Part shown: positions 38,739-39,224 of the stretch, piece by piece
Numbering within the stretch: position 1 is the first letter of the stretch
How the letters are laid out: the number at the start of each line of letters is the position of its first letter
NCBI GenBank assembly: GCA_963772655.1
Contig: CAVYYE010000003.1
Location: 2,545,341-2,609,340, forward strand
Reading direction: 5' to 3'
Length of the DNA stretch: 64,000 nt
DNA from: an uncultured delta proteobacterium
GTDB lineage: Bacteria; Myxococcota_A; Polyangia; Haliangiales; Haliangiaceae
Notes under the pieces: model-generated
Told to the model about the DNA's origin: nothing
Seen by the model: only the letters and a program-made list of their open reading frames with translations
The model's database searches: none
Made by a program: the position numbers and the translations under genes

Positions 38739-39224
38739 TCACTGCTCGACGATGTCGCCCTTCATGCCACCGAGCGCGGCGAGCAGGTCGTTCTTCGCGT
38801 CCTCGGGGACCTTGAACTCGTCGAGCGCCTTGACGAGGTCCTCGACCAGCGCGTTGAAGTCGGCTTCCTTGATCCCCATGCCGGCGTGGGCGGTCTTCAT
38901 GTCCTTGCCCTCGTAGGTGCACGGTCCACCGGACGCGTGGCAGATCTGATCGACCAGCTGCTTCTTGAGGTTGGCGGCATCCGCGTTCTTGAAGAACCCG
39001 TTGATGCGGTCGTCCGCGATCACGTTGGCGAGGAACTTGTCGACCACCGCGGTGATCGCGTCCTTACCACCGAGACGGTCGTACAGCGACTTGGCGGAGG
39101 CGCTGCCCGCGGCCATGTCGCTCCCGCCACCGCCACCTTCCATCGTGTCTCCCTTCTTGCCACCACCGCACGCGGCGAGACCTGCACTAGCGAGCGCGAC
39201 GACCAGGATCATCTTCAGACGCAT
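38739..39224 (-). CDS. Group I truncated hemoglobin (trHbN-like) with a lipoprotein signal peptide
   Basis: RBS GGAGGA. Lipobox [16 protein letters not shown]. The globin core reads [32 protein letters not shown]...[29 protein letters not shown]. Confidence 0.8.

Follow-up and report, generated by a model that had tools for sequence, protein, structure and literature searches.

The window (the whole 64,000-nucleotide stretch of DNA analysed here) encodes a truncated haemoglobin (trHb) that is predicted to be exported and anchored to a membrane as a lipoprotein. Its distal haem pocket is apolar, and from its sequence and those of its relatives we favour, at a probability of roughly 0.55, the reading that this is a haem-b trHb that works outside the cytoplasm, where it would most likely bind, buffer or detoxify NO, or else some other small apolar gas, within the envelope. 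The window gene is a typical member of a phylum-spanning clade whose aligned sequences combine a signal peptide with a wholly apolar distal pocket, Gln at E14 and a Cys pair that occurs as a unit.

Table 1 Features of the globin locus and its surroundings (window coordinates).
Feature	Position	Strand	Evidence and remarks
Exported lipoprotein trHb, coding sequence	38739..39224	(-)	161 codons + stop; translation, Pfam Bac_globin E 1.7e-16
Shine-Dalgarno-like GGGAGG	39232..39237	(-)	7 nt 5' of ATG 39222..39224; read from sequence
Signal peptide, residues 1-18	39171..39224	(-)	n-region R2/K4, hydrophobic core, lipobox L-A-A
Cys19, predicted lipidated first mature residue	39168..39170	(-)	+2/+3 = Gly-Gly; lipoprotein rule, conservation
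Gly/Ser/Ala-rich tether, residues 20-44	39093..39167	(-)	10 Gly in 25 residues; predicted disordered
2-on-2 globin domain, residues 45-161	38742..39092	(-)	HbN alignment, family statistics, model and Foldseek
CX6C pair, Cys95 (end of helix E) and Cys102 (EF loop), probable disulfide	38919..38942	(-)	Both-or-neither co-occurrence
Proximal His F8 (His113), codon	38886..38888	(-)	
Cobalamin riboswitch aptamer	38439..38630	(-)	RF00174, 60.1 bits (gathering 31.5); 3' of globin stop, 5' of receptor
TonB-dependent receptor (Plug and barrel)	36247..38385	(-)	Pfam PF07715 and PF00593; riboswitch-controlled
BtuG-like beta-propeller lipoprotein	35113..36237	(-)	Second gene of riboswitch operon; AlphaFold2 pLDDT 91.7
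Short-chain dehydrogenase (SDR), divergent	39340..40200	(+)	Pfam adh_short E 1.2e-29; syntenic with globin in the same myxobacterial lineage

Independent gene callers report an identical 161-residue globin product on six public contigs. The Shine–Dalgarno-like hexamer at the listed spacing confirms the strong ribosome-binding site claimed in the first-pass annotation of this DNA, and all the protein strings quoted there (one of 25 letters that includes F77 and F78, the other of 15) are found in the open reading frame. An alternative in-frame ATG two codons upstream is spaced too closely to the ribosome-binding site and would, if used, yield the same signal peptide. Between the globin stop codon and the riboswitch, 108 nt of spacer fold into two GC-rich hairpins that lack a U tract (z = -2.4), and scans for promoter and terminator consensus sequences across 38300..39400 gave no matches. 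The globin gene is probably its own transcription unit, outside the adjoining B12 regulon.

PROSITE-style recognition of a lipoprotein requires a charged n-region, a hydrophobic core and the pattern [LVI][ASTVI][GAS]C, with the Cys within residues 15–35. The window globin conforms to this rule, since R2 and K4 precede a 14-residue hydrophobic core (an 11-letter string within the rule match) and the lipobox L16-A17-A18-C19. In relatives, for which signal peptides were called with a hydrophobicity-plus-regex heuristic rather than SignalP, the rule is passed by 102 of the 120 nearest clusters, and 92 of these 102 have Gly-Gly at +2/+3 after the lipobox Cys. Both Cys19 and the M-R-x-[KR]-M N terminus are at least 90% conserved in 58 aligned relatives. 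The survey of lipobox-bearing trHbs in Myxococcota that had been suggested as a check places all 24 myxobacterial loci in the lipobox class by the same heuristic. No twin-arginine motif is present in the window globin or in the 120 nearest clusters, and Sec export is therefore expected. Cys19 would then be lipidated by Lgt, LspA and Lnt. Under the rules that sort lipoproteins between the outer and inner membranes of Myxococcota, the Gly at +2 would probably pass the protein to the outer membrane, facing the periplasm. AlphaFold2 gives the tether a pLDDT below 50 over residues 20–42. Together, the rule match and the conserved Cys19 bear out the lipobox that the first-pass annotation had placed in front of the globin, and the genuine, conserved lipoprotein signal peptide supports its prediction of a membrane-anchored, extracytoplasmic globin.

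The rest of the protein is a group-1 trHb, as had also been claimed, and three lines of analysis agree on this. Pfam Bac_globin (PF01152) matches residues 46–158 over profile positions 1–119 of 121 at 60.9 bits (gathering 21); the best sequence matches in the PDB found with phmmer are all group-1 trHbs, among them Tetrahymena trHbN (E 7e-20) and Mycobacterium tuberculosis HbN (E 3e-17); and an AlphaFold2 model with pLDDT 89–95 across the globin part has M. tuberculosis trHbN structures as its best Foldseek matches (E 7e-9 upward, rmsd 1.0 Å, target TM 0.84–0.88), ahead of group-2 trHbs, which score worse. An NCBIfam profile search with the globin gave no match. Alignment to HbN assigns Leu65 to B10, Phe78 to CD1, Leu86 to E7, Leu90 to E11, Gln93 to E14 and Val127 to G8, and Gly-Gly hinges are present at G52-G53 and G99-G100, where they are invariant or nearly so in relatives. 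The textbook trHb active site is built around Tyr B10. Both this Tyr and the polar Gln at E7/E11 are absent from the window globin, which on alignment and model is a structural member of the trHbN family with a departure from the canonical active site.

The retained His F8 and pocket residues lead us to infer that the protein binds haem b, which would be inserted following export. Since the pocket lacks Tyr B10 and Gln E11, hydrogen bonds would not stabilize bound O2, so that the haem should favour NO (and CO) over O2, a preference that would resemble that of cytochrome c' and of H-NOX domains whose pocket is apolar. Haem carriage, electron transfer and the binding of a lipid or other hydrophobic ligand would fit such a pocket too, and the invariant Gln E14 might itself provide polar stabilization of a ligand. 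Cys95 and Cys102 probably form a disulfide, which would be closed by a Dsb system; the two Cys residues are either both present (211) or both absent (28) in 239 clade domains and never occur singly, which suggests the bond. Three other assignments were considered and rejected. Attachment of haem c through the 'CH' at residues 95–96 fails because a CXXCH is lacking and His96 is not conserved (Glu, Ser or Ala in relatives); the same lack of conservation speaks against a sixth haem ligand at His96 or E10; and the K-T-A-H-A-G-M sequence around His113 does not fit a DxHxxG-type cobalamin 'His-on' motif.

Relatives of the window globin are found in Myxococcota, Nitrospira, Burkholderiales, Acidobacteriota, Bacteroidota and other groups, with 554 confirmed loci among GTDB species representatives; Mesorhizobium delmotii and Thiobacillus are among the carriers. 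Heuristic calls give a signal peptide to 210 of 215 near relatives, 175 of them with a lipobox and 35 of signal-peptidase-I type, and many relatives are multi-globin lipoproteins with 2–8 repeats. Across the 239 clade domains, His F8 and Phe CD1 are invariant (239/239 each), B10 is Val, Ile or Leu in 237 and never Tyr, and Leu at E7 (231), Leu at E11 (233) and Val at G8 (237) are nearly fixed; E14 is invariantly Gln in the exported clade. In a broader set, the top 149 clusters at 50% identity, of which 106 have a signal peptide, export correlates with the type of pocket read from the sequences: Tyr B10 occurs in 11 of 198 exported domains versus 102 of 172 domains without a signal peptide, and Gln E11 in 5/198 versus 81/172. 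The Cys pair is commoner in exported domains (92/198) than in non-exported ones (10/172). The view that an exported lipo-globin is unusual thus holds by comparison with every characterized or crystallized trHb and needs qualifying in sequence space, where exported trHbs are common.

Gene neighbourhoods of the clade, in which the globin was placed by an HMM-forced call, offer a link to NO in Nitrospira. At 16 Nitrospira loci the globin gene lies directly 3' of a same-strand gene for a NirK-like copper nitrite reductase, with gaps of -13 to 74 nt, and at five of these a cytochrome c gene follows. The NirK-like gene matches TIGR02376 with E 1.3e-63 at 215 bits, under the 296-bit cut-off of that model. 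A link to stress is suggested by a gene pair for an ECF sigma factor and an RskA- or ChrR-type anti-sigma factor, which stands beside the globin at 11 loci in five taxa; ChrR-type anti-sigma factors, which are part of the singlet-oxygen response, flank it at six Nitrospira loci. TrHb1 has been mentioned in passing as a nitrosative-stress protein in comammox Nitrospira. The NirK association is absent from the myxobacterial lineage of the window, where no NO-metabolism gene is found nearby, and within Nitrospira it may reflect just one or two ancestral events. Handling of NO or O2 at the envelope, one of the functions floated in the first-pass annotation, gains independent support from these 16 loci and from the apolar distal pocket.

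The same annotation had noted that the globin adjoins a riboswitch-controlled receptor, and both the riboswitch and the TonB-dependent receptor are confirmed by profile matches (Table 1). The globin lies 354 bp upstream of the receptor, which the NCBIfam BtuB models match weakly. In sequence searches of the PDB, the 374-residue product of the following gene gave insignificant YncE matches only, and its likeness to BtuG required a fold search: in Foldseek, every one of the top 16 PDB matches to its model is a B12-binding lipoprotein of the Bacteroides BtuG type (E 2.6e-13 to 1e-10). Adjacency of the globin and receptor is seen at 17 of 24 myxobacterial loci (17 of the 19 with enough downstream sequence) and at none of 69 loci elsewhere, and is confined to Kofleriaceae-like Myxococcota; the riboswitch occupies the same relative place in all seven myxobacterial loci tested. 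A convergent CAP-domain gene stands between the globin and the receptor operon in most relatives. The riboswitch cannot gate the globin because the globin lies 5' of it on the same strand.

This neighbourhood should not be over-read. If the lipid-anchored globin were an accessory of tetrapyrrole uptake, capturing corrinoid or haem and handing it over to the adjacent receptor, the short distance between the two genes would be explained, as would the persistence of their adjacency in the informative myxobacterial loci despite differing outer flanks and the recurrence of the riboswitch. Two further settings are in keeping with such a role: an unrelated tandem-globin locus lies directly after a TonB-dependent receptor and before an ABC binding protein, and tandem globins of Bacteroidota adjoin the gene for glutamyl-tRNA reductase (hemA), the first enzyme of haem synthesis. 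However, the position of the globin means that it is not regulated by B12, the intervening CAP-domain gene rules out co-transcription in most relatives, the operon already encodes a BtuG-like B12-binding lipoprotein of its own, and the orthologous receptor is missing from all the non-myxobacterial loci. The divergent SDR gene is equally syntenic with the globin, so inherited gene order explains the pattern, which counts as a single evolutionary event. The pocket, with its invariant His F8, also resembles the site of a resident cofactor rather than of a cargo. The position beside the B12 operon thus looks like inherited gene order and not shared function; the tetrapyrrole-related function suggested at first is not supported by these observations, and we consider a part in uptake highly unlikely. 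Scarcely credible is the idea that the true start lies downstream, leaving the hydrophobic N terminus untranslated and the product an ordinary cytoplasmic trHb. Met28 and Met37 do provide in-frame internal ATG codons 5' of the globin domain, but the strong and well-spaced ribosome-binding site belongs to the ATG at 39224, with none noted in front of Met28 or Met37. Relatives of 52–97% identity conserve the signal peptide, the lipobox Cys and the tether as protein, as do relatives across phyla, and exported proteins typically have such a conserved Cys pair as is seen here. A mis-called start had been raised from the outset as a possible flaw; homologues instead conserve the N terminus, Cys19 and the lipobox.

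Other readings accept export and differ in what the haem would do. The protein might serve as a periplasmic haem buffer or chaperone that carries haem b as cargo, storing, detoxifying or delivering it with no gas chemistry. Sec export without a twin-arginine motif, which implies that haem is acquired in the periplasm, would suit this role, as would an apolar pocket without ligand-stabilizing residues, the presence of hemA beside Bacteroidota members and the multi-globin lipoproteins, whose repeats fit capacity better than catalysis. We nonetheless judge it quite improbable, given that genes for haem uptake, haem export or cytochrome maturation are not recurrent beside the globin in 93 loci, that the tunnel and pocket positions E7, E11, E14 and G8 (at least 231 of 239 domains each) are held more strictly than haem carriage needs, and that the Nitrospira operons with NirK and cytochrome c point to ligand or redox chemistry. 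Such chemistry could instead be that of an envelope O2 or redox enzyme: in the periplasm, the globin would reduce O2 or deliver it, or serve as a peroxidase or an electron carrier. Periplasmic trHb domains of cable bacteria have been proposed as an alternative terminal oxidase (PMC11976967), a precedent for this reading. The cytochrome c gene 3' of the globin in five Nitrospira loci and the ChrR-type anti-sigma factors at six are compatible with it too. Against it, the loss of Tyr B10 and Gln E11 should make the oxy complex short-lived, as trHbN mutants indicate; moreover, the surroundings of the window gene encode no redox partner, and the window protein is a stand-alone domain and not a cytochrome fusion. 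A redox enzyme is unlikely on these grounds, and binding, buffering or detoxification of NO or a similar gas is the reading that we prefer.

The bacterial trHbs studied so far have all been treated as cytoplasmic, with cable-bacteria fusions as the main partial exception. A large clade now breaks both this rule and that of the Tyr-based active site: its members are predicted to be exported, often with a lipid anchor, and are often built of tandem repeats, and their pocket would be unable to hydrogen-bond O2. A search of the full-text literature, in which coverage of subscription journals is thin, returned no paper on signal-peptide or lipoprotein trHbs, and Bustamante et al. 2016 mention neither signal peptides nor cysteines nor the periplasm. 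It is conceivable, although we hold the idea tentatively and with some doubt, that exported apolar-pocket trHbs with a stapling disulfide are a distinct, unrecognized functional class of NO-selective haem proteins in the periplasm, the equivalent of cytochrome c' built on a globin fold. As proposed, the class spans Myxococcota, Nitrospirota, Pseudomonadota, Acidobacteriota, Gemmatimonadota and Bacteroidota, and in Nitrospira it stands in an operon with NirK. To our knowledge, nitrite oxidizers and comammox bacteria have no canonical NO reductases. If the class is real, its Nitrospira globins could be the unexplained means by which these bacteria handle the NO that they make themselves. Periplasmic NO binding, if true, would bring a new component into NO homeostasis at the envelope, with relevance to nitrifiers such as Nitrospira, and would change how annotations of 'group 1 truncated hemoglobin' are read.

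The closest known proteins are the group-1 trHbNs, M. tuberculosis HbN (GlbN) and the Tetrahymena pyriformis trHb, which have the same 2-on-2 fold (rmsd 1.0–1.3 Å) at 31–34% identity. They share with the window globin His F8, Phe CD1, Val G8 and the Gly-Gly hinges after helices A and E, and M. tuberculosis HbN also has Leu at E7. Whereas trHbN is cytoplasmic, the window globin begins with a signal peptide of the lipoprotein type followed by a tether; it lacks a pre-A motif and has two conserved Cys residues. Leu replaces Tyr B10 (Val or Ile in relatives) and Gln E11, which removes the network of hydrogen bonds by which trHbN keeps O2 in place for NO dioxygenation. At E14 it has Gln, whereas Phe predominates there in trHbs that lack a signal peptide. 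The lPHCtX proteins of cable bacteria, as described in PMC11976967 after Kjeldsen et al. 2019, likewise place a trHb domain outside the cytoplasm behind a signal peptide. By that description they are fusions to pentahaem cytochromes, that is, to multihaem c-type cytochromes, in one lineage, unlike the window globin, which is a stand-alone lipoprotein with relatives in many phyla. BtuG, the partner of BtuB in Bacteroides, resembles the globin in being a lipoprotein whose gene neighbours that of a TonB-dependent B12 receptor under riboswitch control. It is, however, a surface-exposed seven-bladed beta-propeller, to which the globin is dissimilar, and the riboswitch-controlled unit does not include the globin. 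H-NOX domains of the apolar-pocket type and cytochrome c' combine a proximal His with a distal pocket free of hydrogen-bond donors, and favour NO while disfavouring O2; cytochrome c' is periplasmic and associated with denitrification. Their folds are unrelated to the globin, and cytochrome c', unlike the globin, holds a covalent haem c. Pocket chemistry and the NirK neighbourhood suggest that these proteins would be analogues of the window globin in function only.

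The globin gene of the window encodes a truncated haemoglobin (trHb) with a lipoprotein signal, as confirmed by the open reading frame, the lipobox, the Pfam match and the fold model, and every string quoted in the first-pass annotation is found in the frame or its product. The N terminus ([18 protein letters not shown] followed by [35 protein letters not shown]...) has two basic residues and then a hydrophobic core 14 residues long; a canonical lipobox, L-A-A-C with the cysteine at position 19, is followed by a 25-residue Gly-rich spacer that leads into the globin domain. The N terminus passes a PROSITE-style rule for prokaryotic lipoproteins, and a search of it for a twin-arginine motif found none. 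An annotation artefact, in which a miscalled start creates the signal, is improbable: six public contigs carry the identical 161-aa product as called by independent gene callers, the nearest 120 clusters (90% identity) are nearly all 150–166 aa long with an M-R-x-[KR]-M start and an L-x-A-C-G-G motif, 102 of these clusters pass the strict form of the rule, and Cys19 is at least 90% conserved in a 58-sequence alignment. The mis-called start that the first-pass annotation named as a refuting outcome is thereby dismissed. The lipoprotein rule and the conserved lipobox of the relatives bear out the predicted export, and we put the probability that the protein is an exported lipoprotein globin at 0.85–0.9. 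Cys19 would be lipidated. Lipoproteins undergo Lol sorting according to their +2 residue and, because this is Gly here, the destination would probably be the outer membrane.

Pfam Bac_globin matches residues 46–158 with 60.9 bits against a cut-off of 21, and the closest solved structures are group-1 trHbs from Tetrahymena, cyanobacteria, mycobacteria and Shewanella (E 7e-20 to 1e-15). The AlphaFold2 model, built on 58 relatives, has a pLDDT of 89–95 in the globin part and is disordered over residues 1–44. Foldseek aligns it to Mycobacterium tuberculosis HbN at 1.0 Å rmsd, with group-2 trHbs clearly lower-ranked, and His113 (F8), Phe78 (CD1), Val127 (G8) and two Gly-Gly hinges are in place, upholding the group-1 identity assigned at first pass. 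The gene product is a Sec-type lipoprotein precursor with a disordered tether and an intact globin fold that has a proximal histidine and an apolar distal pocket.

This pocket is strictly conserved. Among 239 domains from near relatives, CD1 is always Phe and F8 always His, B10 is Val, Ile or Leu in 237 and never Tyr, and the prevailing residues elsewhere are Leu at E7 (231) and E11 (233), Gln at E14 (237) and Val at G8 (237). Gln E14, which is Gln93 in the window protein, may touch the ligand or the edge of the haem; in diverse representatives the commonest E14 residue is Phe (143/370 domains). Cys95 at the end of helix E and Cys102 in the EF loop occur together in 211 of the 239 domains, are both missing from 28 and never occur singly, the pattern that an exported protein with a structural disulfide, formed by oxidation of the pair, would show. 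The Bacteroidota tandem di-globins of loci L006–L008 have Gly/Glu in place of the two cysteines. Among the more diverse representatives, the type of pocket is correlated with export: Tyr B10 is found in 11 of 198 domains with a signal peptide and 102 of 172 without, Gln E11 in 5 and 81, and the Cys pair in 92 and 10, respectively, the comparison proteins without a signal peptide being mostly very long poly-globins.

A pattern scan of GTDB, with a single genome for each species, confirmed at least 554 loci of the exported-globin type. The best 80 of these come from Myxococcota (Kofleriaceae/Haliangiales), Nitrospira, Casimicrobiaceae, Thiobacillus, Pelomicrobium, Mesorhizobium, Dongiaceae, Blastocatellia, Terriglobia, Gemmatimonadales and Ignavibacteria; Bacteroidota have tandem di-globin lipoproteins. 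By a simple hydrophobicity-plus-lipobox heuristic, 210 of 215 proteins carry a signal peptide (175 with a lipobox, 35 of signal-peptidase-I type), the other five being fragments or heuristic misses. When 1.84 billion cluster representatives were searched exhaustively with HMMER, 5744 clusters passed E ≤ 1e-3; a threshold of 1e-10 left 2590 of them and one of 1e-30 left 206. Signal peptides are present in 106 of the top 149, 64 of them with a lipobox, and many of the 106 are multi-globin bacterial lipoproteins with 2–8 repeats separated by acidic linkers. The same search returned very long proteins with 5–12 tandem trHb domains (P0121, of 1882 aa and 12 repeats; P0125, P0127, P0136, P0145, P0148 and others); those without a signal peptide mostly retain Tyr B10 and may be eukaryotic. 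In locus L020 (WNWL01000001.1, labelled Oceanobacillus sp. HTM 045) the lipoprotein globin is of Gram-negative style, and its Arg-rich signal may be of the Tat type; as this and the 67% G+C of the locus misfit low-GC Oceanobacillus, the record could be contaminated or carry a wrong label. Databases name clade members only 'group 1 truncated hemoglobin', 'hemoglobin' or 'truncated hemoglobin YjbI'.

Features of the window and of relatives' globin loci (L-numbers)
Feature	Position	Strand	Remark
Exported-globin ORF	38739..39224	-	161 codons, read from sequence
GGGAGG		-	7 nt 5′ of globin ATG, read from sequence
Gln93 (E14) codon	38946..38948
Cobalamin riboswitch	38439..38630	-	Rfam; between globin stop and receptor
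TonB-dependent receptor	36247..38385	-
374-aa lipoprotein gene	35113..36237	-	3′ of receptor; lipobox-like N terminus
Ser/Thr kinase	32280..35090	-	large, with TPR repeats
Ser/Thr kinase	40230..42404	+	large, with TPR repeats
Globin, L006 and L007	8001..8834		tandem di-globin
Next gene, L006 and L007	9233..10405
Riboswitch, L011	11338..11501		directly before BtuG-like gene
Globin, full-length NirK-like Nitrospira loci	about 10000

The first-pass annotation also placed the globin beside the B12 uptake locus and considered a tetrapyrrole-related function, a reading that would make it a tetrapyrrole-uptake accessory. Pfam found no domain in the 374-aa protein encoded after the receptor, which has 679 homologues labelled 'hypothetical' or 'YncE beta-propeller'. 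Its AlphaFold2 model is a β-propeller (pLDDT 91.7). The 16 PDB entries that match this model best are without exception BtuG-type surface lipoproteins of Bacteroides that bind B12, among them a BtuB–BtuG complex (E 2.6e-13 to 1e-10, TM 0.64–0.76 on target, 13–14% identity). The riboswitch operon is thus predicted to encode a BtuB-like and BtuG-like pair, in which case the role of corrinoid-capture lipoprotein is already taken. BtuG is not known from outside Bacteroidota, and such a pair in Myxococcota may merit its own study. Riboswitch control of the globin is excluded because the globin lies upstream of the riboswitch. In Kofleriaceae-type contigs the order is a divergent short-chain dehydrogenase gene (SDR, -), globin (+), often a CAP-domain gene (-), riboswitch, receptor (+) and propeller (+), and the intervening convergent CAP gene excludes globin–receptor co-transcription in those relatives. 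A receptor orthologue lies within 10 kb downstream of the globin in 17 of 24 myxobacterial loci (17/19 informative, as in five of the seven negative loci the sequence stops no more than 1.5 kb from the globin) and in none of the 69 loci of other taxa, and the SDR is equally syntenic. We therefore read the adjacency as inherited gene order, a single evolutionary event in one lineage with no family-wide functional coupling. Weak counter-hints are a different TonB receptor upstream of the tandem globin in L009 and, in L006–L008, a tandem di-globin immediately upstream of hemA, which encodes glutamyl-tRNA reductase, the enzyme that opens haem synthesis; a role in uptake nevertheless seems unlikely. 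In the myxobacterial relative L011 the CAP gene and the riboswitch are separated by the gene of a beta-lactamase-domain protein, and the riboswitch is not followed by a TonB receptor, so the propeller protein can be riboswitch-controlled alone. The two kinases bracket the SDR–globin–B12 block, and similar kinases occur near it in L005, L011 and L012.

Gene context in other lineages points to NO and envelope stress. Clustering of three genes each side of the globin at 93 loci identified 16 Nitrospira loci (L036, L039, L043, L044, L047, L051–L053, L063, L066, L071, L072, L080, L084, L087 and L089) with a 330-aa two-domain copper protein encoded immediately 5′ of the globin in the same orientation, at a spacing of -13 to 74 nt. 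This protein matches TIGR02376 (copper nitrite reductase) at E 1.3e-63 and 215 bits, under the 296-bit trusted cut-off. In five of the 16, genes for a cytochrome c and a sigma-54 activator come after the globin; in the others the next product is a conserved protein of about 190 aa that lacks a Pfam match. At 11 loci in five taxa the globin adjoins an ECF sigma factor (SigK-like) and an anti-sigma factor of the RskA or the ChrR (cupin) type, on one strand with it in L022 and L023, divergent in L029, L032, L042, L054, L064 and L078, and also in L049, L070 and L085. The recurrence of this pair suggests that a regulon for envelope or oxidative stress includes the exported globin. Neither the NirK-like nor the sigma-factor association is seen in the window's own lineage, so it is through the common pocket, with its strict conservation, that function is transferred to the window gene.

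Our best estimate is a periplasmic protein that would bind, buffer or detoxify NO or another gas. Haem b would be inserted after export. It would lack stabilisation of O2 by Tyr B10 or Gln E11 and, judging from cytochrome c′ and from H-NOX domains with apolar pockets, should therefore prefer NO or CO. A role specific to NO is tentative, at somewhat under even odds. Its competitors are a haem buffer or chaperone and an O2 or redox enzyme of the kind proposed for cable-bacteria trHb fusions. Of the initial interpretation, export stands and the B12 link is not supported; NO or O2 handling at the envelope is plausible given the pocket and the NirK context.

The globin fold and family are already known. 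The literature we searched, which leaves out most subscription journals, yielded no description of signal-peptide or lipoprotein trHbs, the apolar pocket or the Cys pair. Predicted localisation, pocket chemistry and disulfide together define a putative uncharacterised subclass, of which the window gene is an ordinary member. What comes nearest in that literature is a single line that names TrHb1 as a nitrosative-stress protein of comammox Nitrospira, and the periplasmic trHbs of cable bacteria (PMC11976967) which, unlike the window protein, are fusions to cytochromes.
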